DNA from: Spirochaetia bacterium
Lineage (GTDB): Bacteria > Spirochaetota > Spirochaetia > WTKD01 > G963693115
DNA: 64,000 bases
Direction of reading: 5' to 3'
NCBI GenBank assembly: GCA_965226055.1
Contig: CBDDCA010000006.1
Span: forward strand, 128,001-192,000
Positions 49,561 to 63,684 of the stretch are shown here, piece by piece (position 1 is the first letter of the stretch; every line of letters begins with the position of its first letter). Both the position numbers and the translations under genes were made by a program. The notes under the pieces are model-generated. The model was given only the letters and a program-made list of their open reading frames with translations, ran no database searches and was not told where the DNA came from.

Positions 49561-50229
49561 TTACTCTCCATCAATATAGTACACCATATTTTTATCATAT
49601 ATATCTTCTTCATCATGGCTTACTAACAATGCAGGTATACCACTATCTTGTATATTTTTCCATACCCAATCACGCATAGTTTTTCGTAAAGAAGTATCAA
49701 GTTTAGCAAAAGGCTCATCCAATAACAAAAATTTAGGAGCAGAAAGCATTGTGCGTATAAGTGCTAGTCGCGACTGTTGTCCACCCGACAGAGTATGCGG
49801 GTACATACCAGCTACATACTGTTCAAGCTGTGCTTTTTCAAGCATATTGTGTACAAAACCTTTCCTTTCATGTTTTGGCAGTGGCTGAGACAAAGCAAAC
49901 AATAAGTTTTGGGCAACAGTCATATGAGGAAAAAGCAATCCTTCTTGTGATAGTAACCCTATTCTTCGTTCATGTATTGGCTTTACATCAATACGCTCAC
50001 CATCAATACGCACTTCACCACTTGTATCAAACACCGAAGTATCAATAATCCCTGTGATAAAATTGAGTAATGTACTTTTTCCTGAACCACTGCTTCCCAT
50101 GATAGTAAGCACTGAACCACCGTATAAATGATACTGCAAATTATGAACAAGCACTCTACGAATTTCATGCTTTTTGGGATATTTTACTATTTGCCTATGT
50201 ACAATATGTATATTGTTTAGCTCAACCAT
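49561..50229 (-). CDS. ABC transporter ATPase (YnjD-like)
   Basis: GSSGSGKST, LSGGQ, LLLDEPF. Confidence 0.88.
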   Translation of the reverse strand: MVELNNIHIVHRQIVKYPKKHEIRRVLVHNLQYHLYGGSVLTIMGSSGSGKSTLLNFITGIIDTSVFDTSGEVRIDGERIDVKPIHERRIGLLSQEGLLFPHMTVAQNLLFALSQPLPKHERKGFVHNMLEKAQLEQYVAGMYPHTLSGGQQSRLALIRTMLSAPKFLLLDEPFAKLDTSLRKTMRDWVWKNIQDSGIPALLVSHDEEDIYDKNMVYYIDGE

Positions 50230-50264
50230 ATTACTTTTTCATATATGCTATCATATCTCTATAC

Positions 50265-51989
50265 TTACAAAGATACCTTACGCATTCCTTTTTGTAAATG
50301 AGAGGTATAATGCCCTACTAATAAAATCGTTCCATTCAATACCATCAATAAAATCCCTAGTATACTAATTACTTGCCTGTTTGCCCCCGAATATAAAGCA
50401 ACAATCAACTGAGTAATAGTTTCCCATCTTCCTTCTCCAATAAACTGTGTAGTAACATATTCAGCAATACTCACTAACATACCAATAAGCATAGCATGAC
50501 TTATCGGAGTAATGATCATAGGCAACTTTATTCTAAAAAATGCAAGCCAATACTTTTTACCAAGGACACGTGCTTGTATCATATAATAATTATTATATGT
50601 CTTAAAAGTACCATATAATAAAAATACTATATAAGGAACAATACGCAAAGTATGTCCCCACAGTAACGCAAAGTAGCTTCCATTTATATTGATATACAGA
50701 AAAAAAATATGCATGCCAGTAATATACACAATAGTAGGCATAAGGAGCGGAAACATAATAAGCGTTAAAATAGGAAACTGAAAACGCCAACGAAGATAAT
50801 TCAACAATTCTAGAAGTATCACTGCAAAAATAGTAGACAATACAGTACTATAAAATGCTAAACATACAGTACTGACAACTGAGTTAAAAAAACGGAAAAA
50901 GAAAGAAAATTGTCTATCAATACCAAAAACATTGGGTATTATCAAAGGAAAATCCCACCGAATGATCCAACACCATAAAAACAGCAATGCAGTAGAAAAA
51001 ACAATAACACAAGAAAATACCATAAACGCAGATACAGACAAGTAGTTTGCCACTGTATCATGTACTACTACCTTACTTGCATTGACATAATTTTTGTGTA
51101 ACATAAAATGAAATACCTTAAACAGTGCATACCATATCACAAGACTTATAAAAGAAACAAAGCATAACCCTACGCAAAGAATGTTTGCAGTAATATATTT
51201 TTTTTGAGAATACTGAGACAACAACTCTTGAATAATCACTCCATATGAAGACGGATTTTTAGGACCAAGAATCATTGATATATCAACTGGCGCAAGAGCA
51301 TAAGAAACAGAAATAAGCGTTGGAACAAATAATTTAGGCAAAATCTGTGGAATGATAACAAACACCCAAGTACGCAACTTATTATGTCGTAACAGCTTTG
51401 ATTGCAGTACATGATGTTGTAAATTGTATTCTTGTAACACAGCAACTAAAATAAACAAAAGAAACGTAATCAATTTAATAATTACTACAATAGACATACT
51501 TATACCATAAGAATCGTATACCGTTGTAATAGATCCAACAACACTCTCTCCCTTGAAAAAAGCAAGTATCCTAAATATAATCCCAGAAGGCATAATTAAA
51601 AATGCAAACCCAGTAGCTAACGACACGTGAGGAATAGACAAAAAATACATAATCCACTGTATGAAAGCATTATTATAGTTACTACTCAGCAAGTACCCAA
51701 ACAAAAATATAAAGAACAAAGTAATAAGCACAATACACTGTGCTCGTATAAATGTTTTTATGAGCTGAAAAAAATATATAGGATCAAACAATACTTCAAA
51801 AAAAGACACTGTTTGTTCAGAAGCTGTCCATATTGGAGTAATACCCATTGAAGTAAGAAGAGAAAATACCATTCCTAACAAAAAAGGAAATATAAAAATA
51901 ATAACAAGAACAAAAAGTAATATAATACTCCTCAGTTTTTTATTATTCTCTACTTCCTTCTTCATGGGACGTAAAAACAAAAGTGCCAT
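50265..51989 (-). CDS. ABC transporter double permease (YnjC-like)
   Basis: About 12 TMs, SIPHVSLATGFAFLIMPSG, VDISMILGP, GEGRWET. Confidence 0.82.
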   Translation of the reverse strand: MALLFLRPMKKEVENNKKLRSIILLFVLVIIFIFPFLLGMVFSLLTSMGITPIWTASEQTVSFFEVLFDPIYFFQLIKTFIRAQCIVLITLFFIFLFGYLLSSNYNNAFIQWIMYFLSIPHVSLATGFAFLIMPSGIIFRILAFFKGESVVGSITTVYDSYGISMSIVVIIKLITFLLFILVAVLQEYNLQHHVLQSKLLRHNKLRTWVFVIIPQILPKLFVPTLISVSYALAPVDISMILGPKNPSSYGVIIQELLSQYSQKKYITANILCVGLCFVSFISLVIWYALFKVFHFMLHKNYVNASKVVVHDTVANYLSVSAFMVFSCVIVFSTALLFLWCWIIRWDFPLIIPNVFGIDRQFSFFFRFFNSVVSTVCLAFYSTVLSTIFAVILLELLNYLRWRFQFPILTLIMFPLLMPTIVYITGMHIFFLYININGSYFALLWGHTLRIVPYIVFLLYGTFKTYNNYYMIQARVLGKKYWLAFFRIKLPMIITPISHAMLIGMLVSIAEYVTTQFIGEGRWETITQLIVALYSGANRQVISILGILLMVLNGTILLVGHYTSHLQKGMRKVSL

Positions 51990-52014
51990 ACCTTATACTA
52001 TACAGTGTAATACA

Positions 52015-53298
52015 TTACTTGAGATACCGATTTTTCCAAAATTCCTGTATAGGTTCTTCCCACGTACTATGAAACTCTCTAATAGTTGTTTTTCCTATAT
52101 CTTTTGGAGGGCCTGCAGGGTGTGTACTAGAATCATTTCTAAATACATATTCATCCTCTCTCTCTAAAACATCCCTATCTAACACAGTAGGATCTCCCCA
52201 GTACTGAGGATCAGCCTTACGAGCTTGTGCTTCAGGAGAAATAAGAAAATTTATGACAACAAGTGCTGCTGGCTTAGAGGTAGCATTGAAAGGCACTGTC
52301 AAGAAATGAGCGTTTGCTATCGTCCCTTCATCCAATAAAAACATCCTTACATCATCAGAAAATTCTTTACTAAGCACTTTACTTACCGCATCATAAGGAT
52401 TAAATGTAAGCCCATACTGTATTTCTGAATCCTTAAAAAGCGTTATCATTTCTGAATAACTATTTGGAAACGATGTTCCTTGTTTCCATAGATACGGATG
52501 TATAGTATCAAGAAACAACCATACCCCATTATTAGCAATAAAGTGTTGCTGTTCACTACTAGCAGTATACGGACTGTACAGCATGGCCATGCCTTGTTTA
52601 TCAGCAAAAAGATACATCATGTTTTTGAGAAATGTATTTCCTGTAAAATCAAGATATGGGACAGGATACGTAAACATTCCAGGATGTTTCTTTACCTCTT
52701 CTTGTAACTGAAACAGATTATAAAACGCACTTGTTTTGCTTGAACGATGAAAAAAACTTAATTGAGCCGTCCCCCACGGAACCTCTAAGCCATCAGTTTT
52801 TATAGTAAAATCTTCGTACAATACAGGATTATTCTCATCCAAATACTTTTTGTTAGGAAGAATATCTAAAATATTCCCTAAAAACATATCCTCATTTTTC
52901 ATAACATTAAACGCTTCTCCATTAAGCCACACAATATCAATACTTCCCGTATCATAATTACCAGCAGCTTTTTCCTGATGCAAACGCCTTATTGTCTCCA
53001 TAGTATCTTGTACAAGCACGTGGACAAGATTGATATTATAGATTTGCTTAACTTGCTTTCTTACCCACTGTATATACTGATTTATTTGATTAGATCCCCC
53101 CCATGCATTAAAATACACCGTCTTCCCTTTAGAAAACTCCTCTATTGTTTGCCAATCTACAGAAAACACATCAACACTTGCCTTTTCTTTCGCAGCACAA
53201 GAGAGAAACAATACAGCATATAATACAATACATACACTCATACATATTGAAAAACAGAGAGCTGTCTTACTTTTTTGAAACCTATATGTAGTACTCAT
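52015..53298 (-). CDS. ABC substrate-binding lipoprotein (YnjB-like)
   Basis: Lipobox LFLSC, VYFNAWGG, DIVWLNGE, DFTGNTFLK, NFLISPEAQARKADP..WGDPTVLD. Confidence 0.88.
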   Translation of the reverse strand: MSTTYRFQKSKTALCFSICMSVCIVLYAVLFLSCAAKEKASVDVFSVDWQTIEEFSKGKTVYFNAWGGSNQINQYIQWVRKQVKQIYNINLVHVLVQDTMETIRRLHQEKAAGNYDTGSIDIVWLNGEAFNVMKNEDMFLGNILDILPNKKYLDENNPVLYEDFTIKTDGLEVPWGTAQLSFFHRSSKTSAFYNLFQLQEEVKKHPGMFTYPVPYLDFTGNTFLKNMMYLFADKQGMAMLYSPYTASSEQQHFIANNGVWLFLDTIHPYLWKQGTSFPNSYSEMITLFKDSEIQYGLTFNPYDAVSKVLSKEFSDDVRMFLLDEGTIANAHFLTVPFNATSKPAALVVINFLISPEAQARKADPQYWGDPTVLDRDVLEREDEYVFRNDSSTHPAGPPKDIGKTTIREFHSTWEEPIQEFWKNRYLK

Positions 53299-53582: not shown

Positions 53583-54392
53583 ATGAATAAAATATCTCCT
53601 CTATGCACCTTGTTTATAACAAGCATTATGCTATTACTTAATAGCTGTGATATCATAGATCCTATTGATCTTCAATTACAACCACACTCTTATTCTCCTC
53701 CAACATGGATACAAGGAAAATGGGAACACGAGCAACTTACTATAACAGCTCTTGAAAATAACATTATTATTTGCGAAACAAAATATGTAGAAATAACTAC
53801 TAATTTTTCAAATATGATGAAATATAATGTAAAAGAAAACAAATCAACATCTCACCCCACATATCGTATTTCATTTAAGGAACAAGATTCACATTTGGGA
53901 GAAATAAACAACATCTATGAATTTATTAAGCAAAATGATAACACATTAATCTATAATCATTCAATTGAAATTGAAAACCAACAGCATAATTCAAGTAAAG
54001 CTACCTATACACTAACAAAACAAACTCCTCTTTATTCTTATTCTCCTCCAGCATGGATACAAGGCTCTTGGACATATAATGATATCACAATTACGCTGTC
54101 AAAAAATAATATTACAATCGTCAGTAACGATCTATGGATTGATTTCTCAAAACATATGATAGATAACATAATAGAAACAATACATGAAAATAATAATACA
54201 TATAGTATTGCTACTCAACAATACCATGAAGGTATAGGAAAAACAACTCAACAATTTACATTCATGAAGCAAGATAACTCCACATTAGTCCATACACATT
54301 CATCAGTACATTTAGAGAGCATATCAGACATAACGATTTATATACTAAAAAAGCAACAAAACACTCCTCCAATACTATACTATAACAAATAA
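53583..54392 (+). CDS. Lipoprotein with two tandem ~115-aa domains
   Basis: Lipobox LLLNS-C; SYSPPTWIQGKW and SYSPPAWIQGSW; FIKQNDNTL and FMKQDNSTL. Confidence 0.75.
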   Translation: MNKISPLCTLFITSIMLLLNSCDIIDPIDLQLQPHSYSPPTWIQGKWEHEQLTITALENNIIICETKYVEITTNFSNMMKYNVKENKSTSHPTYRISFKEQDSHLGEINNIYEFIKQNDNTLIYNHSIEIENQQHNSSKATYTLTKQTPLYSYSPPAWIQGSWTYNDITITLSKNNITIVSNDLWIDFSKHMIDNIIETIHENNNTYSIATQQYHEGIGKTTQQFTFMKQDNSTLVHTHSSVHLESISDITIYILKKQQNTPPILYYNK

Positions 54393-54405: not shown

Positions 54406-55158
54406 TCAATGTATCAATTTTTCTGGATTACTGTATCGTATAAGTGCCTTCGCTAACACATCTGTTGCATCAATAAGTAATGTATCTACCATGTTTTGAA
54501 ACAGAACCACTGGTATTTCAGTACAGCCCATTATAATCGCTTGTACTGTATACTCATCTTGCAAATCCTTTGATACCTGTTGTAATATCATCCTAGCTTC
54601 TTGTGAAGGAGGAGAAGACTGTGCCTTTATACCATATGCAGCATTGTATATACTTTGATGTACAAGCTCTTTTTTCTTCTCATTTGGTACACATAGCTCA
54701 ATATCATATTTTTTGAGTATATCACTATATAACTTAGATGCATATGTTCCTTTTGTTGCAAGTAACCCTACTCTATATATACTATTCTGTACAAGATACT
54801 CTGCAACTTCTTCAATCATATGGACAAAACGCATATCAGACATAGTATGTTTCTGTAATAAACTATCAATCTCTTCATGTATAGGAGCAATATGTGCCGT
54901 ATTACAAGGAATACCAACCGTATAACATCCTAGTCCATATAATTGAGTAATAACATCAAATATATCAAGTGCTGGATTACGTAATGTTCTATCATAAAAA
55001 TACGCTGTTCTATCTTCTATTGCATGAGCACAAGAAATATGATAGATAGGAATATGATCTTGATCTTGAACTGCTTTTGTATTTTTTATTACTTTAGCAT
55101 GTAAATCAACTCCAGCGAAAGGGCCAACTCCGCCAATAATGCCAATCTTATTTAGCAT
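54406..55158 (-). CDS. Aspartate/glutamate racemase family protein
   Basis: IGIIGGVGP, DQDH, IPCNTAH and MGCTEIP (both catalytic Cys), GLLATKGT. Confidence 0.92.
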   Translation of the reverse strand: MLNKIGIIGGVGPFAGVDLHAKVIKNTKAVQDQDHIPIYHISCAHAIEDRTAYFYDRTLRNPALDIFDVITQLYGLGCYTVGIPCNTAHIAPIHEEIDSLLQKHTMSDMRFVHMIEEVAEYLVQNSIYRVGLLATKGTYASKLYSDILKKYDIELCVPNEKKKELVHQSIYNAAYGIKAQSSPPSQEARMILQQVSKDLQDEYTVQAIIMGCTEIPVVLFQNMVDTLLIDATDVLAKALIRYSNPEKLIH

Positions 55159-57352
55159 CTAATATCTCATCACTATCAAAATAAAGAGTATCATACTCAT
55201 GAGATACTTCACCTTCATCCTCACGAAGCAACGCATCTATAGGATCAGAAATTCCTAAACCATAGCTATTTTCTTCTATTGTTTTTTCTATTGTATCACT
55301 CACTGTACTATCACTACTCTCTTCTTCTATAGAGCTTCCTTGCTTGACATATCCAAACAACTGGTATACGCTCGTAAATTCCTTCTTTCCTTTTAATTGC
55401 ACTGCTTCTAAGGCCTTATACTTAAACTCAGGACCCAACATTGATTTAGTTGTTTCTGAAATCAATATTTTTGTACTATATTCTTTATTGAGACCTTCTA
55501 ATCTACTAGTAACATTCACCGTATCACCTAATACAGAAAAATTAAATTTCTGTACAGAACCAAGTACTCCTACAAGAGCATGTCCCGAATTTACTCCAAT
55601 ACGAGTTGCAAACCGTATCCCGCTTAATGAAGCAATTTTTTCATTTATTATCTTATGAGCAAGTTGCATCTTTAATGCTGCTAGACACGCTTGTTCAGCA
55701 TGATTTTCATTTTCATCAAACACACCAAACAGTGCCATAATAGCATCTCCAATAAATTTATCAATGATACCATTTTGATCAGCAATAACATTACACATCT
55801 CCGTAAAATAGATACTCAATGCATCCGAAAGCTGTAGCGGAGAAAAATTTTCGGTAATACTAGTAAAAGAGACAATATCACTAAACAAGATACTAATATT
55901 TTTTTTATGTTCCATTCGTAACGATATTTCAGTATTCTTTTGTATGGAATCCACAATAACTTCTTGCGGTACAAATTTCTTAAAGGAAGACAGACTCTTT
56001 ATAACTCGATTATAGACTTCTCCTATATTTTTTATCTCTGTTACTTTCATCTTGCTCTGGTTATCTTTATACGAATTATCTAATTGTAATGAAATTATTC
56101 CTCCCATCAGATCAGATATATCCCCTATTTTATCTGATATGTTTTGTGTAAGCCTTGAGTACAGAACAAGGGCTATAATAAACATGATAGTCAACAATAC
56201 AATACCCAACTTTAATGTATTATAAAAATCTCCTACTAAGGTTGTATCTTCTAACACAAAAATGAGATTCCAATCTATACCATTAAATGTGTTCATATTG
56301 ACAGACGTATATATATACTTGCTTCCTTCATAAGAAAAAATATCGGTAAATGTATTTGAATTTATATTGATATTCCCTAAACTATTAAGAGACGAAGAAG
56401 GAAACAAAATATCAGTAAGAATCCTAACAATACTTTTTTTATCTAATTGATCCACTTGCTGTTCTCTCCTTTGAGAGAGATTATAAAGCATGTACTTTAT
56501 TTCACTACTTACAGCATAATCATCAACCTTAAATAACTGTATACCAGAAGCACGATTAGTCGTTCTTTGTTGTAATGTTGATCTATTATTCAAAAATATA
56601 TCATGATACGCTATAATGTTATCGTTATTATCACTGATAAGAGTAGCTCCTATATTACTAAAAGGTAACTGTACTATAAAATCAGCCAAATAGCTTAGGC
56701 TTATATCAATGGATATAACTCCTTCAAAGCCATCTACATTCACCTTTCTTGTCCCCGTTATTCCTAAAATTTTGTCCGAAAAGAAAATATAAGGTTCTGT
56801 CCATTTAATGTTACTAGCATTAGCATTTTGATACCATGGTCTTTTTCTTGGATCGTAGCCTTGTTCTAAACTTGATTCAGAGTATTCAGGAAATATAAAT
56901 CTGTTTTCTTTATTTTGATGTATCCATTCACTCACTATCTTTGACTCTGTCCTATATACATAGCGTTTACTAATACTATTATCAACCATTCGCTTGGCCA
57001 TATAAAAATTACCATTAAAATCAGCCATGTACAAGGCATTGATATTCACATCCGACTCTAAGAAACCAGACATAACATCATACCAATAATTAGGATCTGT
57101 TACCTCAAATATATCGCTACGGGCAATGTTATATAAAGAGTCAAGGGCATTTTCAGCATTAACAAAATATGCTTCAAGTTCACCTATTATATTTGAAGTT
57201 GCCACTGCTCCAAATTCTTTTGCTACTTTTAAGGATATAGAAGAATTTTGACTATAAAAAAGAGATATTATTGTAATAAACAACACTATAATCACTGTCC
57301 CCATCACAGTAATCAATAGAGCTTTTAAGGAAATTGATGTTCTATTTTTCAT
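55148..57352 (-). CDS. Membrane class III adenylate cyclase with extracytoplasmic Cache domain
   Basis: TM - YDPRKRPWY, WTEPYIF (Cache) - TM - HAMP-like - ILFSDIVSFT, DKFIGDAIMALFG, LGDTVNVTSRLEGLNK. Confidence 0.92.
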   Translation of the reverse strand: MKNRTSISLKALLITVMGTVIIVLFITIISLFYSQNSSISLKVAKEFGAVATSNIIGELEAYFVNAENALDSLYNIARSDIFEVTDPNYWYDVMSGFLESDVNINALYMADFNGNFYMAKRMVDNSISKRYVYRTESKIVSEWIHQNKENRFIFPEYSESSLEQGYDPRKRPWYQNANASNIKWTEPYIFFSDKILGITGTRKVNVDGFEGVISIDISLSYLADFIVQLPFSNIGATLISDNNDNIIAYHDIFLNNRSTLQQRTTNRASGIQLFKVDDYAVSSEIKYMLYNLSQRREQQVDQLDKKSIVRILTDILFPSSSLNSLGNININSNTFTDIFSYEGSKYIYTSVNMNTFNGIDWNLIFVLEDTTLVGDFYNTLKLGIVLLTIMFIIALVLYSRLTQNISDKIGDISDLMGGIISLQLDNSYKDNQSKMKVTEIKNIGEVYNRVIKSLSSFKKFVPQEVIVDSIQKNTEISLRMEHKKNISILFSDIVSFTSITENFSPLQLSDALSIYFTEMCNVIADQNGIIDKFIGDAIMALFGVFDENENHAEQACLAALKMQLAHKIINEKIASLSGIRFATRIGVNSGHALVGVLGSVQKFNFSVLGDTVNVTSRLEGLNKEYSTKILISETTKSMLGPEFKYKALEAVQLKGKKEFTSVYQLFGYVKQGSSIEEESSDSTVSDTIEKTIEENSYGLGISDPIDALLREDEGEVSHEYDTLYFDSDEILDAK

Positions 57353-57396
57353 ATATTTTTTAGTAGTTTAGTAATTAGAATAGCAACATCACATAC

Positions 57397-58677
57397 CTAC
57401 CGTATATCCTGATATTTCTTAGTAAAATTATTATACAGTACACTCGTTAAAGCTGTATTTGTATGCATAATAATAGTTGAACGTAAAGGCTCTATAACAA
57501 TATCAATAGATATTAAAAATAATAGCGTTGTTTCAACAGGAATACCTATTGAAGATATAACTACCGCTAAAATACTTAATGTAGGAGTACCTGAAATACC
57601 AAATGTAGCAAGCCCTGCAAATATCACTGCTACAGCAAGAAACATATAAATCATGCCACTTAACTCTATATCATATAACTGAGCAGAAAAGATAGTTATC
57701 AAAGAAAAGTAAAAAATGTTCCCAAAACGACCTATCACCATCAATATAGGTAATACTGATTTTGAAAATACATAATTCACCTTAAATTTTGAAGAGAGTG
57801 TATTGATAAATATAGGCATAGTAACTATGCTGTTTCTCACTACAAACAGAGCAACTAAAGGATGAAAAGAAGCCATAGCTGAAGGTAACAATTTCTGTTT
57901 TGAGCTTACTGCGAGCATAACAACATTAGCACATAATAAGAGAAATCCAAAAATATAAAAAATAAGCACTAACTTACCAGTAGCAAAAATAACATTCATA
58001 TTCATCTTTGCAAATTCTGAAGCGGTAATACAGACTACAAAAATTGGTAACAATACCATTAAATATGATATTAATGTTGAAAATACCTCATATATTTCCT
58101 CAAAAAAACCAATAATAAGATATTTTCGACGCACCCCTCTTTTAGGAAGGGAGCCAATTGATAAGCCAAATAAAATAGAAAAGATGAGTATAGAAAAAAT
58201 ATGACTTGAAGACAATGAATTAAAAATATTTGAAGGGATAATCTTCAATAAAAAACTAATAAATCCTGTCTCAACCGTATCTTCTCCTGACAAATTTACT
58301 TCTACCACCTCACTCCGTAAATTTACCTGCTGTGATAGAATATCTTTACTCTCTGTAGATATATCCCCTGGAGTAAATAATACCCCCACCAGTATCCCTA
58401 ATAGAGCATATATAATTGATACAATTCCTACAAATAAGATAATTCTACCAAAAAAGCGCTTTAAGTAATCATTAGTAATAAATTTTCCTATACTACAAAT
58501 TATCGCAGATACAATTACAGGGATAACTGCCATGTTTAATAGTAATAGATAAATAGTAGAATATACAGAAAGATATGTTCCTATAATTTTATGTGAAGAA
58601 CCAATATAGATTCCTATTATTATTGATAATAGTAAGGTTATTGGGTTTTTTAGAATGTAAACTATATATTTTCTCAT
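57397..58677 (-). CDS. DAACS (dicarboxylate/amino acid:cation symporter) family protein, atypical motifs, copy B
   Basis: LLNMAVIPVI, IIPSNIFNSL, IFSILFGLSI, VRNS, IGRFGN, IDIVIEPLRS. Confidence 0.85.
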   Translation of the reverse strand: MRKYIVYILKNPITLLLSIIIGIYIGSSHKIIGTYLSVYSTIYLLLLNMAVIPVIVSAIICSIGKFITNDYLKRFFGRIILFVGIVSIIYALLGILVGVLFTPGDISTESKDILSQQVNLRSEVVEVNLSGEDTVETGFISFLLKIIPSNIFNSLSSSHIFSILIFSILFGLSIGSLPKRGVRRKYLIIGFFEEIYEVFSTLISYLMVLLPIFVVCITASEFAKMNMNVIFATGKLVLIFYIFGFLLLCANVVMLAVSSKQKLLPSAMASFHPLVALFVVRNSIVTMPIFINTLSSKFKVNYVFSKSVLPILMVIGRFGNIFYFSLITIFSAQLYDIELSGMIYMFLAVAVIFAGLATFGISGTPTLSILAVVISSIGIPVETTLLFLISIDIVIEPLRSTIIMHTNTALTSVLYNNFTKKYQDIR

Positions 58678-58685
58678 ATGTATTC

Positions 58686-59537
58686 TTACTGCTTATTTCT
58701 TACAAAATCTCTAAAATTATACTCATCAAGAAGCCTTCTTGTATCCTGTTGAATATTCATTGACTCTAGTACCCTATTTAAGTAAAACACAAAATGGAAT
58801 TCAGAAGGATGCACTGCTATAGCAATTGGATCTATTTGATCTTCAAGTATCACTGGCTTCAAAGTTAAGTTACTACTAGGCTGTGACTGCATTATTTTGA
58901 ATATCTCAAGCTCATCCCGATATATTGCAAACACTTCTCCATTTATCCCTGCATCTATAACATTTTCCCATGAATCTAATGAATCTATTTTAGCATGAGG
59001 AAAATTCAAATTTGCATATCGTTCATACGAAGAATTTTTAATGACACCAATATTCTCCTCAAAACTTTTTAAGAAAGATTTTAGCTCATTGTCTTTTACT
59101 CCAAACTTTGCTAGTTTTACTTTATTTATCAGTAATGCTTGACTAAACACAATATAGGGATCGGTATACAATACCCGTCTACTCCTCGCTAAGGTAAGAC
59201 TCAATTTAGAAGAAGCAAAATCAATCTCTTTATTAAGTACTAAAGGAATAAGATCATTAAATCCTTGTGCTGCCCTACTAATTCTCAAATCTACCCCAAT
59301 ACGGTTTGCTACTTCTTTTGCTATATCTACATCTAATCCTACCATAGTCCCATCAGAGCTTTCGTAATAAAAAGGAAACTGATCTACTGCAGTCATACCA
59401 ACAACAAGATATCCTCTTTCCTTTATCTCATCTATCTTAGCAGTGCTTATGCTTCCTGGTGTCTGAGTAAAAGCAGATATAGCACCTATTACTAATAAAA
59501 ATACCAACATTAACGATTTATTCATTCTCATCTCCAT
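58686..59537 (-). CDS. Amino-acid-type solute-binding protein (family 3), copy B
   Basis: Signal peptide, IDEIKERGYLVVGM, GLDVDIAKEVA, SKLSLTLARS. Confidence 0.87.
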   Translation of the reverse strand: MEMRMNKSLMLVFLLVIGAISAFTQTPGSISTAKIDEIKERGYLVVGMTAVDQFPFYYESSDGTMVGLDVDIAKEVANRIGVDLRISRAAQGFNDLIPLVLNKEIDFASSKLSLTLARSRRVLYTDPYIVFSQALLINKVKLAKFGVKDNELKSFLKSFEENIGVIKNSSYERYANLNFPHAKIDSLDSWENVIDAGINGEVFAIYRDELEIFKIMQSQPSSNLTLKPVILEDQIDPIAIAVHPSEFHFVFYLNRVLESMNIQQDTRRLLDEYNFRDFVRNKQ

Positions 59538-59548
59538 ACTTAAAATAG

Positions 59549-60850
59549 TTACTCTTTAGGTTCAATAACAGGCCCCTCATGTATTGATTGACCTGTTTTT
59601 TGATACTGTGAGTATAAAATTGCTGTTAATACTGTATTAGTATTAACAATTATAGTGGTACGTAAAGGATCAATAATAGTATCAATAATCAACAATATTA
59701 CTAACACAGTTTCAAAAGGAATACCAAGCGGTTCTACTATTAGCCCTAAAAGACTTAATGTGGCAAAACCACTTGCTCCTGCCGTAGCTACTCCTGCAAA
59801 CACAATACTTATACAAATAACTACCAATGCAGACACAGACAAATCAGTGTAATAAAGCTGAGCTGCAAAAAGAGTAACAAGAGCAAAATAAAAAATATTA
59901 CCAAAACGTCCTAATACTGTCATCAATGGCATAACAGATTTTGCAAATGAATGATCTACTCCTAAATCTTTTTTAAGAGAATCAATAGCAACAGCCATAG
60001 AGGCAATACTATTTCTTGTGGTAAATGCAATAATAGAAGGGTAGGCAACTATTCCAGTAACCTTAAAAAAACTTTTTTTCACACTTACTGCAAGTGCCAC
60101 ACTATTTGTTACTAACAATAGTATACCAAATATGTAAAAAGTAATAATCAATTTCGCACTTGCAAAAATAATATTAAATCCTGACCGTGCAACCTCTGAT
60201 GACATAATACATATAAGAGCAAAAGGGAGCAGCAACATAACATATGAAATAATACTTGAAAATATAAGATATATTTCTTCAAAAAACTCTACCACATATG
60301 CTTTATCACCCTTTTTAGGAATAGCCCCCACTGCAAGTCCAAATATAATGGAAAACACTAATACTGCCAGCACCTGATTTGAAGCTAAAGAGTTAAATAT
60401 ATTATCAGGAATTATCAATAGTAAAAAATCTTGAAGCCCATTATCCTGAGCTGTATCGGTTTCATCCAATCGTATACGTAATATCTCACTTTGTAAACTT
60501 ACTTGTTCAGACATTATTTCTCTACTTTCTTCGGATATATTACCGGGACGAAATACTAAGCCAATAACAATTCCTATAATAGCATACAAAATTGATACGC
60601 CAATAAGTACTAATATAATCTTCCCCAATAATTTCTGCATGCGAGAATTAGATACAAAACGACCTAAACTGGTAACAATGGCAGATATAAGGATAGGAAG
60701 TACTGTCATTTTAAGTAAAATTTGATATGCGTCACCATAAATTGACAAAGATAAACCTAATCCTTTATAGTATAAACCAATAAAAATACCTATCCCCATT
60801 GCAACAATTGATGTCAATGGATGTTTAATAAACTTCACAATAGTGTTCAT
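59549..60850 (-). CDS. DAACS family protein, atypical motifs, copy A
   Basis: LLKMTVLPILI, IIPDNIFNSL, VLVFSIIFGLAV, AFTTRNS, LGRFGN, IDTIIDPLRT. Confidence 0.87.
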   Translation of the reverse strand: MNTIVKFIKHPLTSIVAMGIGIFIGLYYKGLGLSLSIYGDAYQILLKMTVLPILISAIVTSLGRFVSNSRMQKLLGKIILVLIGVSILYAIIGIVIGLVFRPGNISEESREIMSEQVSLQSEILRIRLDETDTAQDNGLQDFLLLIIPDNIFNSLASNQVLAVLVFSIIFGLAVGAIPKKGDKAYVVEFFEEIYLIFSSIISYVMLLLPFALICIMSSEVARSGFNIIFASAKLIITFYIFGILLLVTNSVALAVSVKKSFFKVTGIVAYPSIIAFTTRNSIASMAVAIDSLKKDLGVDHSFAKSVMPLMTVLGRFGNIFYFALVTLFAAQLYYTDLSVSALVVICISIVFAGVATAGASGFATLSLLGLIVEPLGIPFETVLVILLIIDTIIDPLRTTIIVNTNTVLTAILYSQYQKTGQSIHEGPVIEPKE

Positions 60851-60864
60851 AATTATCCTCTTCT

Positions 60865-61725
60865 TTATTTATTTTCTTTATATAACTGTAAAATTATTTG
60901 GGAATCAGTCTCTAAATCTATAGTCTCTAATACTCTGTTAATGAAAAATAAGAAATGGTATTCATTAGGATGTACTGCTATTGCTATAGGATCAGTGTTA
61001 TCTTTTAATAATACAGGCTTTAGCACTAAATTGCTATTAGCATTTTCTTGTATTACCTTAAATATCTCTACTTCATCTCTGTATATTGCAAAAACAGAAC
61101 CAGTAAGAGCAGCATTTACCACTTCTTCCCATGTATCAAATAATTCAATCTTTGCAAAGGGAAAATTACTCTTTGCATAACGAACATAGGAAGATCCTTC
61201 TACTACCCCCAAAGTACCAGAAAAACTTTTTAGCAAAGTATTTAATTTATTATTATCAATATTTGCTCTTGCTAGTTGTACTCTATTAAGAAATAACGCT
61301 TGACGCAATACAATATAAGGGTCTGAATATAATATCTTCTTTGATCTATCAAGGGTTCTGCTCAATTTTGATATAACTAAATCTACTCTCCTCTCTACTA
61401 CTAATGGAATAAGCGCATCAAACGAGGGAGCTTCACGATTTATTCTCAATGCAACATCCAATCGTGCCGCTATTTCAAGTGCTATATCTATGTCTATACC
61501 TGCCAGATTTGTTACATTTGTTTCAACTTCTGTATCTCCTACCTTGCTAGTATCAAGAGTATAATAAAATGGATAATTATCTACTGCTGTCATACCAACA
61601 ATAATATACCCTCTTTCTTTTATTTCTTGAATTTTTTGTGCATACTCTAATTGAGAAAAGAGAGCAGGAGATACAAAAAATATCATACATATGCTAATAA
61701 TGTTACATATATGTCGTTTTATCAT
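60865..61725 (-). CDS. Amino-acid-type solute-binding protein (family 3), copy A
   Basis: Signal peptide, IQEIKERGYIIVGM, GIDIDIALEIA, SKLSRTLDRS. Confidence 0.87.
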   Translation of the reverse strand: MIKRHICNIISICMIFFVSPALFSQLEYAQKIQEIKERGYIIVGMTAVDNYPFYYTLDTSKVGDTEVETNVTNLAGIDIDIALEIAARLDVALRINREAPSFDALIPLVVERRVDLVISKLSRTLDRSKKILYSDPYIVLRQALFLNRVQLARANIDNNKLNTLLKSFSGTLGVVEGSSYVRYAKSNFPFAKIELFDTWEEVVNAALTGSVFAIYRDEVEIFKVIQENANSNLVLKPVLLKDNTDPIAIAVHPNEYHFLFFINRVLETIDLETDSQIILQLYKENK

Positions 61726-61832
61726 AATTACTCATTTCTTTTTAAATTACTTACCGTTATTATCGCCATATTTCTGGGATTCCTTTATATTTTTTTATAT
61801 ATCTTCATATATAAAACTGCATTACCAGTAGT

Positions 61833-61861
61833 ATTATAATAATATTTACACACTTTTTCAA
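61833..61861 (-). promoter_or_regulatory. Sigma70-type promoter of the SBP/DAACS/cyclase/racemase operon
   Basis: TTGAAA-N17-TATAAT on the minus strand, about 108 nt upstream of the first ATG. Confidence 0.7.
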
Positions 61862-61900: not shown

Positions 61901-62374
61901 CTATTTTTTTTGTTCTGTTGTATTACTGGTAAGCATCTTATTATCATTTTTAAAATAAATAGGAAACAAAAGACTACAGAGTAATACTGTATAAACAATA
62001 AGTGTATATGTTATAACTCTTAGGAGTTGTGTATGCGGTATTATATAGTATAATAGGATATGTATTATTACAGACAGAGATATTATACTTAGAGCTATTA
62101 GTTTGATAATACCGATTCTTATTAGTGTTTTTCTAAAAAAAGGTTTGTTGTTTGTTACACTTGTTACTATTGTTGTAAATATATGTTGTAGTAGTTTATA
62201 CACAAAAGGGAGTGTAATTATCAGTATAGTTATTATTCCTGTGGGAATAACATAGCTAACTAAAAAATCTGATAAGGGTATTGAGTTATATATCATATGA
62301 TTTATCCCTATCATAGGGATAAGCAATATAGCGAGTACCACTAATATTGTAGTATATATAGTTGATTTTTTCAT
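61901..62374 (-). CDS. Hypothetical 4-TM membrane protein
   Basis: GAGGAG RBS, four hydrophobic segments. Confidence 0.65.
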   Translation of the reverse strand: MKKSTIYTTILVVLAILLIPMIGINHMIYNSIPLSDFLVSYVIPTGIITILIITLPFVYKLLQHIFTTIVTSVTNNKPFFRKTLIRIGIIKLIALSIISLSVIIHILLYYIIPHTQLLRVITYTLIVYTVLLCSLLFPIYFKNDNKMLTSNTTEQKK

Positions 62375-62499: not shown

Positions 62500-63684
62500 T
62501 CAAATAGTACATTTATCTAAAGCACATAGTATATCAGTATTTATATGTAACTGTACTATCTCTCCTTCTTGAGGCCATTGTTTGCCTATGTCTTGTAATG
62601 TAATAATTTTTAAGCCCCTAAACATAGGATGTTGACTTTCTACTATGACTTTATAATGATTTCCCATAAAATACTTTTTTTCAACAAGCCAATTTTCTCC
62701 TTGAAATCGAGCAGATATATTGGAACGTATGTCTACCATATGGGGACGTACACATACAAAAAACTCTTTCGTTGTCTTAAAATCTTGATAGTTTAATACT
62801 TTCTCTTCAGGAATAAAACCACATGGAGAGCATAGTTGACCACAAATGCTTTGTTGTATAGGCAGAAAATTGACATCATCAAAATATCGTGCTATTGCAT
62901 GCGTTTTTGGACTATTGTATAGCTGAGAAGGACTTCCTTCTTGTATAATTTTTCCTTCACTGAGTAACATAATTTTATCAGCTAAATACATTGCTTCTGT
63001 CGATTCATGGGTTACCATAATCACTGTAGTATTTGAGGCTTTAATCTCTTGTAATTCTTCAATCAAAGCAAAAGAGGTAGCACTATCAATACTGCTAAAG
63101 GGCTCATCAAGCAACAAGAGGCGCGGATCTATTACTAATGCACGAGCAAGTGCAACTCGTTGAATTTGTCCTATTGATAGCTGATCAGGATACCGTTTTG
63201 CGTACCCTGCAAGCTTTATCTTATATAAAATATTCACTGTTTTTTCATATCGTTCATCTTTTGGCAAATGAGAAATACCGTACTGTATGTTCTGTTCGAC
63301 AGTAAGCTGTGGAAACAACGCATGATCTTGAAATAAAAATCCAACACTACGTTTTTCAGGAGGGACACATACAGTAGGTGATGAATATATTTTCTTATAC
63401 ATACTGATAGTTCCTTGAGAGGGCTGCTCAAAACCTGCAAGTAAGCGTAGTATAGTACTTTTTCCTCCTCCACTTGCTCCTCCTAAGACTGCGTATTCCC
63501 CTTCTTTCAACAAAAAAGAAAGGTTTTTTAGTACTTGTGGGAAAGCCTCTTTCTGTGCTTGTGTGCCTTGGGTTCTATTACGAGAAAAAAAATGCTGTAT
63601 CTTAGAAATACTGTTATGGGAAGCATATGAAAATGAGAGATTAGTAACATTAAGAAATTCTTTTTTTATATTGCTCATATACAC
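62500..63684 (-). CDS. Fe3+-type ABC transporter ATPase (FbpC-like)
   Basis: GASGGGKST, PPEKRSVGFLFQDHALFP, LSIGQIQRVALARAL, LLLDEPF. Confidence 0.88.
   Translation of the reverse strand: MYMSNIKKEFLNVTNLSFSYASHNSISKIQHFFSRNRTQGTQAQKEAFPQVLKNLSFLLKEGEYAVLGGASGGGKSTILRLLAGFEQPSQGTISMYKKIYSSPTVCVPPEKRSVGFLFQDHALFPQLTVEQNIQYGISHLPKDERYEKTVNILYKIKLAGYAKRYPDQLSIGQIQRVALARALVIDPRLLLLDEPFSSIDSATSFALIEELQEIKASNTTVIMVTHESTEAMYLADKIMLLSEGKIIQEGSPSQLYNSPKTHAIARYFDDVNFLPIQQSICGQLCSPCGFIPEEKVLNYQDFKTTKEFFVCVRPHMVDIRSNISARFQGENWLVEKKYFMGNHYKVIVESQHPMFRGLKIITLQDIGKQWPQEGEIVQLHINTDILCALDKCTI

Follow-up and report, generated by a model that had tools for sequence, protein, structure and literature searches.

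A recurrent spirochaetal gene set joining family-3 binding proteins and divergent DAACS carriers to a dCache receptor cyclase and an aspartate-type racemase

Layout of the operon

We describe a six-gene operon in a 64,000-nucleotide (nt) stretch of DNA from a Spirochaetia bacterium (assembly GCA_965226055.1, contig CBDDCA010000006.1, positions 128,001 to 192,000 of the forward strand), the whole of which is called the window here. The operon encodes two substrate-binding proteins (SBPs) of family 3, two divergent carriers of the SLC1/DAACS family, a receptor with a class III cyclase domain, and an amino-acid racemase. In a program-made list of open reading frames (ORFs) the six genes are all co-oriented on the minus strand and span 54406-61725. 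With the promoter-like site that precedes them they are, in the order of reading:

61833..61861, minus strand: promoter-like site TTGAAA-17-TATAAT, 11 of 12 matches, the top score in the region
60865..61725, minus strand: SBP-A, 286 amino acids (aa), a secreted family-3 (polar amino acid type) SBP; Pfam SBP_bac_3, 54.5 bits
59549..60850, minus strand: DAACS-A, 433 aa, a divergent SLC1/DAACS carrier with GRFGN in place of NMDGT; Pfam SDF, 236 bits
58686..59537, minus strand: SBP-B, 283 aa, a paralogue of SBP-A with a classical signal peptide; Pfam SBP_bac_3, 68.2 bits
57397..58677, minus strand: DAACS-B, 426 aa, a paralogue of DAACS-A on a longer branch, encoded directly upstream of the cyclase; Pfam SDF, 176.3 bits
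55148..57352, minus strand: receptor cyclase, 734 aa, with a transmembrane (TM) helix, a periplasmic dCache_1 domain, a second TM helix and a class III cyclase domain; Pfam Guanylate_cyc, 109.1 bits
54406..55158, minus strand: amino-acid racemase, 250 aa, of the aspartate-racemase type that is independent of pyridoxal phosphate; Pfam Asp_Glu_race, 94.4 bits

The ORF coordinates give intergenic gaps of 14, 11, 8 and 44 nt and an 11-nt overlap of the cyclase and racemase genes, and on gene order, co-orientation, gap sizes and overlap they agree with the initial annotation of this DNA. That annotation also placed a strong promoter ahead of the unit. The site is present, in the 175-nt gap preceding the SBP-A gene, and is the best in the region, but 71 promoter-like sites were found in the region against 71.3 +/- 7.1 expected in shuffled sequence. 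Because the two counts are equal, the site is plausible by its position and not by statistics. The further claim that the unit lacks an ABC permease or ATPase is borne out by Pfam for all six genes, among which there is no PAAT-type permease or ATPase gene beside the SBP genes; ABC genes do adjoin the unit, however, as described at the end of this paper. A HAMP label that had been given to the cyclase has no support from Pfam, which finds no HAMP match in it at E <= 0.001; a fused relative discussed below (L008) has a weak match, at E 0.0056. For the SBPs, the carriers and the cyclase, every curated NCBIfam model stays below its cut-off. The paralogues are 46% (DAACS-A and DAACS-B) and 53% (SBP-A and SBP-B) identical, and a locus 97% identical to this one was found in the chromosome of a Spirochaetia metagenome-assembled genome (MAG).

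Conserved linkage of the SBP and carrier genes

The operon is probably one form of a four-part module, made up of an SBP, a DAACS carrier, a dCache receptor and a racemase of the aspartate type, that recurs in the Spirochaetota and in a few other bacteria. The evidence begins with gene neighbourhoods. A first genome scan, with DAACS-A alone, gave 14 loci. In the 13 other than the window's own, tblastn with the six window proteins recovered the same set of genes, with identities of 27-47%. The second scan used a 14-row DAACS alignment (A3) and [GL]RFGN[IV][FIL]YF as the sole search pattern, with no SBP in the query; it returned 37 loci, one of them a near-identical relative, leaving 36 non-self. 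Loci were annotated by running hidden Markov models (HMMs), built from the window proteins and the first loci, against all ORFs, and key cases were rechecked with Pfam. At two loci (L066, L067) the DAACS gene is truncated by the contig start, so that the upstream side was not judged there and 34 loci are assessable.

At 32 of these 34 loci the DAACS gene is immediately preceded, on the same strand, by an SBP gene. The SBP-to-DAACS gap is 0 to 2 nt in L004, L008 and L010, 14 and 8 nt in the window, and a 4-nt overlap in L014. A dCache cyclase is encoded at 29 of the 36 non-self loci, in nine of them fused behind the DAACS, and at three others a dCache_1 methyl-accepting chemoreceptor replaces it, upstream of SBP, DAACS and racemase genes (L038:2881-5019, L045:1047-3176, L058:2937-4985). 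Thus a sensor, cyclase or chemoreceptor, is present at 32 of 36 loci and missing from L061, L064, L067 and L068. The racemase too is found at 29 of the 36, and the contig ends first in three of the remaining seven. Two loci that came from the first scan only have an SBP-DAACS-cyclase set (L005) and an SBP followed by a 1199-aa DAACS-cyclase fusion (L008). Outside the Spirochaetota the gene set is present in three MAGs, two of Thiotrichales and one of Holosporales, in the order racemase-SBP-DAACS or SBP-cyclase-DAACS. A few genes are broken: at L048:8055-12258 the DAACS-cyclase and racemase genes are each in pieces, and at L039:5097-5981 the SBP gene is in two ORFs, in both cases through a frameshift or a MAG assembly error.

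Is such an arrangement common around carriers of this family? As a control, a Pfam-SDF search of 61 Spirochaetota genomes gave 30 loci, from which the three clade loci (the window's own, G019 and G045) were set aside. At none of the 27 ordinary DAACS loci that remained, from the same phylum as most of the clade, did the SBP HMM find an SBP (E <= 1e-3, flanks of roughly 1.4 kb). Ordinary SBPs in the flanks should be within reach of that HMM, because in the PDB the related SBP profile made from alignment A4 recovers SBPs of ordinary ABC systems, with E values down to 1e-11 among the top 60 matches listed. In six further clade genomes (G019, G045, G068, G077, G088, G097) the SBP gene is directly upstream in every case; the G068 proteins are identical to those of L033, a locus already counted. 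The linkage of SBP and DAACS genes is not chance. When the operon was first noticed, a lack of conserved linkage among homologues was named as a result that would refute the proposed pairing, and the neighbourhoods do not show such a lack. The clade is nevertheless rare. Of 401 genomes sampled from the phylum, 7, counting that of the window, have DAACS-part matches at E <= 1e-120; these matches alone were used in the phylum-wide A3 search, where the fusion proteins in A3 brought in many cyclase-domain matches.

Natural fusions

A search of 1.84 billion cluster representatives returned 4827 relatives at E <= 0.001, 317 of them at E <= 1e-30. Ten of the best 150 representatives, picked by length, were taken through a Pfam scan and a check for hydrophobic segments, and they include fusions of three kinds. 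Three proteins (P0071, P0096, P0101) consist of a signal peptide, an SBP_bac_3 domain, one extra hydrophobic helix and a DAACS, a predicted layout that fits a periplasmic SBP tethered to a carrier with a cytoplasmic N-terminus. The source of P0096 is a Candidatus Wallbacteria MAG, in which L069:3523-7961 holds two such fusion genes in tandem (728 and 751 aa). That locus has no cyclase or racemase; a gene for an HD-domain protein lies upstream and one for an FGE-sulfatase-like protein downstream.

Three other proteins (P0016, P0017, P0027; 1154-1206 aa) run from a DAACS through a TM helix to a dCache domain and a cyclase, and a word-based search aimed at longer sequences added five more of this type (P0151-P0155, 1184-1249 aa), one of which is labelled merely 'cation:dicarboxylase symporter family transporter' by its source. 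A sequencing error was considered as the origin of the fusion in L008 and was rejected once the fusion had been seen at nine further loci and in eight database proteins.

A third arrangement places SBP-like sequence at the other end of the carrier. P0009, P0014 and P0018 have a C-terminal SBP_bac_3 domain on the DAACS with no extra helix, so that the domain should be cytoplasmic. Seven loci (L035, L036, L043, L047, L048, L057, L065) encode an SBP, a DAACS joined to an SBP-like domain, a DAACS joined to a dCache-cyclase, and a racemase; the order of the six domains at these loci is the order of the window's six genes. The carriers of termite-gut Treponema, about 560-660 aa long, end in an extension of about 150 aa that resembles half an SBP_bac_3 domain, has no extra TM helix and is presumably cytoplasmic; they are the DAACS genes of L034, L040, L042, L044-L046, L049, L050, L052-L056, L058, L059 and L062.

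Duplication of the pair, and other SBP and DAACS genes of the host

What steps account for the two SBPs and two carriers of the window? SBP-A and SBP-B are sisters in a maximum-likelihood tree (support 99/99), and DAACS-A and DAACS-B are sisters in a quick maximum-likelihood tree for which only the SH-like approximate likelihood-ratio test was run (SH-aLRT 97). Because both proteins form sister pairs in their own trees, the SBP-DAACS pair was duplicated as a unit in this lineage. The two trees also share their main groups, namely the proteobacterial proteins, those of termite Treponema, and L035 with L036. Elsewhere a second, cyclase-fused DAACS has come from separate duplications (L035_2 with L036_2; L057_2), and two carriers per cluster therefore evolved more than once.

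The host genome (2.25 Mb in six contigs) bears on the question of an ABC partner for the SBPs. It had been recognised at the outset that an ABC permease encoded elsewhere would speak against pairing of SBP and DAACS. Three loci with PAAT-type ABC permeases exceed the model cut-off, and next to each of them stands a family-3 SBP gene of its own, so that the genome offers no support for such a partner. The other SBP_bac_3 matches of the host are limited to the two window SBPs and one weak match on contig 5, which lies directly upstream of a weak SDF match. This is a third, very divergent pair of SBP-like and DAACS-like genes (L030:3637-8525, contig 5, about 529636-534525, minus strand; SBP_bac_3 22.3 bits, SDF 22.5 bits), 20-25% identical to the window proteins, with ARMGN as its TM7 motif and Lys at the D394 equivalent; it may carry a substrate other than an amino acid. 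Downstream of it come genes for an RCK-domain K+ channel, a cyclic-nucleotide (cNMP)-binding protein of 194 aa and a D-2-hydroxyacid dehydrogenase, possible effectors of cyclic AMP (cAMP).

A fourth DAACS-like gene of the host (L031:6573-7931, contig 4, minus strand; 452 aa, SDF 68.4 bits) has CRAGT as its TM7 motif. Upstream of it is a 264-aa ORF with no family match, and some 3 kb away, at C4:141892-142419, there is a weak match (26 bits) to a cyclase domain.

The carriers

Elevator transport and Na+ coupling have their reference model in the SLC1/DAACS carriers, among them GltPh and the EAATs. Both window carriers score far over the Pfam cut-off for the family (SDF, PF00375; 27.9 bits), and 45 PDB sequences match DAACS-A at E <= 0.001. 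The best solved match is AncInt (PDB 9BGZ), to which residues 16-414 of DAACS-A align at E 8.6e-33. The NCBIfam equivalogs for GltP and DctA remain below cut-off, with best scores of 109.5 bits (cut-off 513) and 93.9 bits (cut-off 638), respectively.

The alignment with 9BGZ locates the divergence. The TM7 motif is GRFGN where AncInt has NMDGT, the stretch of helical hairpin 1 (HP1) is TRNSIASMA where AncInt has TCSSAATLP, the serine motif being altered to RNSI, and the TM8 stretch is DTIIDPLRTTIIVNTN where AncInt has DRILDMARTTVNVTGD. Within TM8, DTIIDPLRT is aligned with DRILDMART; D390, D394, R397 and T398 are retained, and Asn stands at the D405 equivalent. We take the Asp, Arg and Thr of TM8 (the equivalents of D394, R397 and T398) to be the residues that bind substrate in GltPh. 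R315, G317, N318, D390 and R397 are invariant in 31 orthologues, in which D394 and T398 are at least 90% conserved, and helical hairpin 2 (HP2) keeps the GASG stretch of working carriers. An NMDGT-like motif (N[MLIV]DG[TS]) occurs in none of the 150 nearest cluster representatives; the M311 equivalent is Arg in 119 of them, and the D405 equivalent is Asn in 105.

What do these replacements imply for ion coupling? Passages of PMC12668577 give a Na+ set of N310, M/S311, D/E312 and D/E405, and an H+ set that includes L311 and N405. DAACS-A fails the Na+ set at all four positions, and of the two H+ residues only N405 is present. Because the Na+-site residues are lost and a conserved Arg stands there, transport is probably without ion coupling, the Arg presumably taking the place of the bound cation. 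The same passages report that uncoupled homologues tend to adjoin genes of amino-acid-metabolising enzymes, and propose that uptake is paired with enzymatic use; the racemase neighbour found here fits that idea.

A complex of DAACS-A (1-425) with SBP-A (26-286) was also predicted, from one 31-row alignment per protein. The best score was 0.29 against a mark of 0.32, for a carrier modelled as a monomer though DAACS are trimers, and without controls.

The binding proteins

SBP-A and SBP-B both exceed the Pfam cut-off for SBP_bac_3 (26.4 bits), and the N-terminus of SBP-A reads as a hydrophobic signal sequence. The 31 SBPs of the clade form a family of their own, in which the motifs SKLS.T..R and YRDE are invariant; they have signal peptides or, in termite Treponema, a lipobox-like LxSCG. 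When the SBP profile was compared with the PDB, the best match was AncCDT-1 (E 1.5e-33), followed by arginine- and glutamine-type binders. The invariant R127 and D217 align with the ligand Arg and the Asp region of solved amino-acid SBPs (AncCDT-1), and presumably hold the alpha-carboxylate and alpha-amino groups of the ligand.

Cyclohexadienyl dehydratases are among the PDB matches, and an enzymatic role for the SBPs was therefore considered. It was set aside, as the best matches are binding proteins; the invariance of the ligand Arg and Asp and the tie of the gene to a carrier also disfavour it.

The receptor cyclase and the racemase

The cyclase domain of the receptor has the motifs FSDIV, DKFIGDA and GDTVNVTSR, which we read as the adenylate-cyclase type (the metal Asp, a Lys/Asp combination for ATP, and an Asn/Arg pair), and its product is accordingly expected, on motif grounds, to be cAMP. 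The dCache_1 domain scores 29.2 bits in the window protein, under its Pfam cut-off of 45, and 59.5-69.6 bits, over that cut-off, in orthologues (66.9 in P0017). The periplasmic domain includes YDPRKRPWY, a Tyr at +14 and an Asp in SIDIS, the later Tyr and Asp being placed by spacing and without structural alignment. This predicted pattern matches the amino-acid motif of dCache_1AA domains, the AA_motif, which an extract of PMC8915833 gives as Y121, R126, W128, Y144 and D173 of PctA (YxxxxRxWY plus a later Y and D). Its N-terminal part is present in 27 of 27 cyclases examined, one of which has WF for WY.

The racemase belongs to the aspartate racemase subfamily of NCBIfam (TIGR00035, 142.8 bits against a cut-off of 93.1). 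The model for the cysteate racemase CuyB stays below its cut-off (NF052483, 155.2 bits against 190). It aligns to the aspartate racemase of Pyrococcus (PDB 1JFL) at E 5.7e-27, and both catalytic Cys motifs, IPCNTAH and MGCTEI, are kept.

Proposed function

It seems very probable that the SBP and the carrier are a functional pair. Adjacency, translational coupling, co-duplication, co-occurrence across phyla, the existence of a third, divergent pair, and N-terminal fusions of compatible topology all argue for this. The predicted amino-acid sensor of the dCache type belongs to the module as well, since DAACS-cyclase fusions recur and a chemoreceptor can replace the cyclase.

What would the module do? 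The most economical reading, to which we assign a probability of roughly 0.6, is that the pair imports an amino acid: an uncoupled elevator would owe its affinity and direction to the SBP, and the racemase would act on what is imported. Each SBP would capture an amino acid in the periplasm, likeliest an acidic one, for instance aspartate (D or L) or something closely analogous, and would hand it to its own DAACS partner. The DAACS, its Na+-site residues lost and an Arg in their place, would then move the substrate, probably without ion coupling. Affinity and direction would come from the SBP, and the racemase would supply a metabolic sink or a D/L conversion. The dCache cyclase would sense the extracellular amino acid, and its cAMP output may be tied to the availability or flux of the carrier's substrate, because in fused relatives the cyclase is physically joined to the DAACS. 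Domain make-up, linkage, fusions and residue patterns are direct observations; binding, SBP dependence, uncoupled transport, the substrate and cAMP as the product are all points that we infer from sequence. For an acidic D/L amino acid as the substrate we would give even odds at most. The retained TM8 Asp and Arg and the aspartate type of the racemase suggest it; because basic amino acids or glutamine are the ligands of the nearest solved SBPs, the guess draws on the carrier and the racemase and on nothing in the SBPs.

Several observations weigh against amino-acid import by SBP-DAACS pairs as just outlined. The SBP gene is two genes upstream of the DAACS gene in L063, where the order is SBP-cyclase-DAACS, and in L064, from an alphaproteobacterial MAG, a clade DAACS stands with no adjoining SBP, cyclase or racemase. 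Spirochaetota MAGs are the source of most loci, and since many of these MAGs are related (termite-gut) the loci are not independent. The fourth DAACS-like gene of the host has no SBP. The SBP-like domains on the cytoplasmic C-terminus of the DAACS in many relatives are not explained by a simple delivery model. The passages of PMC12668577 list Asn at the D405 equivalent among the signature residues of H+ coupling, so that transport may instead be proton-coupled. Finally, the solved SBPs nearest to those of the window take basic amino acids or glutamine and not acidic ones.

A bolder version of the import model, which we hold only tentatively and well short of even odds, is that of a transporter-receptor class, in which an SLC1-fold elevator with a built-in Arg would be gated by a family-3 SBP and coupled to a dCache cyclase, so that flux is read as cAMP. 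The coupling would be by fusion in the relatives and by complex formation here, and the carriers, duplicated repeatedly and independently, would have split into a transport copy and a signalling copy.

Alternative explanations

Might the DAACS proteins have given up transport altogether? As the main alternative, the liganded SBP would dock on a non-transporting DAACS, and the state of the DAACS would control the dCache cyclase fused to it or next to it. DctA, which modulates DcuS and DctB, offers a parallel. Such a sensor complex would account for the recurrence of DAACS-dCache-cyclase fusions (9 of 36 loci, L008, P0016, P0017, P0027, P0151-P0155), the presence of a sensor at 32 of 36 loci, the loss of the ion-coupling residues, and the K+ channel and cNMP-binding protein that follow the third pair; a division of labour would agree with the repeated origin of duplicate DAACS genes within a cluster. 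Yet these proteins keep the TM8 Asp, Arg and Thr and the HP2 GASG stretch of working carriers, and a cytoplasmic racemase at 29 of 36 loci implies that the substrate enters the cytoplasm. Moreover, some SBP-DAACS sets lack a sensor altogether, namely those of Holosporales and Thiotrichales (L061, L068) and the Wallbacteria fusions, and the dCache domain has what appears to be a complete amino-acid motif of its own. We therefore consider a purely sensory DAACS unlikely. A transceptor, which signals and also transports, would be compatible with import of an amino acid by the SBP-DAACS pair.

The other two alternatives take the SBP away from the carrier. In one of them the SBPs are partners of the dCache receptor in an SBP-assisted sensor, and the DAACS are independent, co-regulated carriers for the same compound. 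A Cache gene does lie directly upstream of the SBP gene in L004, L010, L038, L045 and L058, and the gene order of L063 points the same way, but SBP-DAACS pairs or fusions occur without any Cache protein (L061, L068, L069), the N-terminal SBP-TM-DAACS fusions tie the SBP to the carrier and not to the sensor, the apparently full dCache motif would allow direct binding of an amino acid, and SBP and DAACS were duplicated together; we regard this explanation as improbable. Family-3 SBPs normally serve PAAT-type ABC importers, and it might be thought that the window SBPs are ordinary parts of an importer whose permease and ATPase are encoded elsewhere, the adjacency to DAACS reflecting shared regulation. 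The usual ABC linkage of family-3 SBPs, the ABC SBPs that are their nearest solved relatives, and the PAAT-type permeases encoded by the host genome would all agree with this. It is hard to reconcile with the SBP that adjoins each of the three permease loci, with an adjacency retained across phyla at 30-45% identity, with the existence of SBP-DAACS fusion proteins, with the finding of no SBP at the 27 ordinary DAACS loci, and with the separate family, marked by invariant SKLS.T..R and YRDE, that the clade SBPs form. An ABC role is in our judgement very improbable indeed.

Relation to known systems

The closest precedent is the TAXI-GltS system of Bordetella pertussis, in which, according to passages of Jaques et al. 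2025 (PMC12344293), the gene of an SBP is translationally coupled to that of a secondary amino-acid carrier. The systems are alike in that the carrier is of the elevator type and normally SBP-free, and in that rare natural SBP-carrier fusions are a key argument (PMC12344293). They differ in their parts: an SBP of the TAXI (TRAP) family and a Na+-coupled GltS of the ESS family there, a family-3 (ABC type) SBP and an SLC1/DAACS without the Na+-site residues here, with a cyclase and a racemase in addition. The same passages state that TRAP and TTT were the sole secondary-transporter families recognised as using SBPs before TAXI-GltS, and in the Discussion of that paper partnership with SBPs is proposed to be a property of elevator-type carriers, with a call for further classes. 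A term search of PMC12344293 returned no mention of DAACS.

The hallmarks on which SBP-dependent secondary transporters have been recognised, an SBP gene coupled to the carrier gene and natural fusions of the two, are both seen in the clade described here. TRAP and TTT systems are SBP-dependent secondary transporters, as is proposed for the clade, and have elevator-type membrane parts, but they have DctP/TAXI or Bug SBPs and DctQM/TctAB folds, with no homology to the parts found in the window. The DctP, TAXI, Bug, DctQM, TctAB and GltS types are not in the unit, for which Pfam gives SBP_bac_3 and SDF instead. TRAP transport requires Na+, as abstracts on these systems state.

Among DAACS carriers, AncInt of the Ext-Int clade (PDB 9BGY/9BGZ/9BH0, PMC12668577) is described there as a reconstructed aspartate transporter independent of Na+ and H+. 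It is the closest solved structure to DAACS-A, and carriers of the Ext-Int type likewise tend to adjoin amino-acid-metabolising enzymes. In AncInt, however, NMDGT and all site residues are kept and uncoupling is allosteric, whereas in DAACS-A the residues themselves are replaced (GRFGN, and Asn at 405). No SBP partner for AncInt-type carriers is mentioned in the cited passages of PMC12668577. GltPh, GltTk, the EAATs, GltP and DctA belong to the same Pfam family as the window carriers, align with them over the full length, and share the conserved TM8 Asp, Arg and Thr; the window carriers differ in lacking NMDGT, in the altered HP1 (RNSI) and in having a dedicated SBP. DctA is also known as a partner of periplasmic-domain sensors, in the DctA-DcuS and DctA-DctB pairs, where the sensors are histidine kinases, the DAACS is a normal ion-coupled one, and there is neither an SBP nor a fusion. 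For the receptor, the PctA-type dCache_1AA proteins of PMC8915833 have in common with the window cyclase YxxxxRxWY and, as placed by spacing, the later Y and D of the motif given there. The window receptor differs in that its output is a class III cyclase, fused behind a DAACS in relatives.

Full-text literature searches, with subscription journals and supplements outside their scope, found no paper on SBP-DAACS pairs or DAACS-cyclase fusions. By its gene content the module would represent SBP-dependent secondary transport with new partner families, together with a signalling link that has no described counterpart. If the import model is true, an SLC1 branch that has lost the Na+ site, bears an Arg and works with an ABC-type SBP would be a new class of SBP-dependent secondary transporter, and its study would directly test the proposal, in the passages of Jaques et al. 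2025 (PMC12344293) cited above, that elevator-type carriers partner SBPs. The fusion of carrier and cyclase, or the pairing with a chemoreceptor, would be a direct link of nutrient uptake to second-messenger and motility control in spirochaetes. The abstract of PMC9043183 reports cAMP control of motility in a Leptospira, and one might speculate that the cyclase and chemoreceptor versions of the module are two routes to the same behaviour. The natural fusion proteins would be ready-made targets for structure determination.

Flanking genes

Two sets of ABC genes flank the operon. Upstream of the unit is an ABC ATPase, PotA/PhnT-like, at 62500-63684 (minus strand), and on the other side, at 49561-53298 (minus strand), is a complete, separate ABC importer with an SBP_bac_8/PRK11622 protein, a 574-aa BPD_transp_1 permease and an ATPase. 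Neither is of the PAAT type that family-3 SBPs normally serve.

The gene nearest to the operon on its upstream side, 175 nt away at 61901-62374 (minus strand), encodes a strongly hydrophobic membrane protein of 157 aa that belongs to no known family. On the downstream side, at 53583-54392 (plus strand), a convergent ORF of 269 aa that has no Pfam or NCBIfam match encodes a putative lipoprotein with an internal duplication, seen as two segments of the YSPP.WIQG.W...ITIT type.

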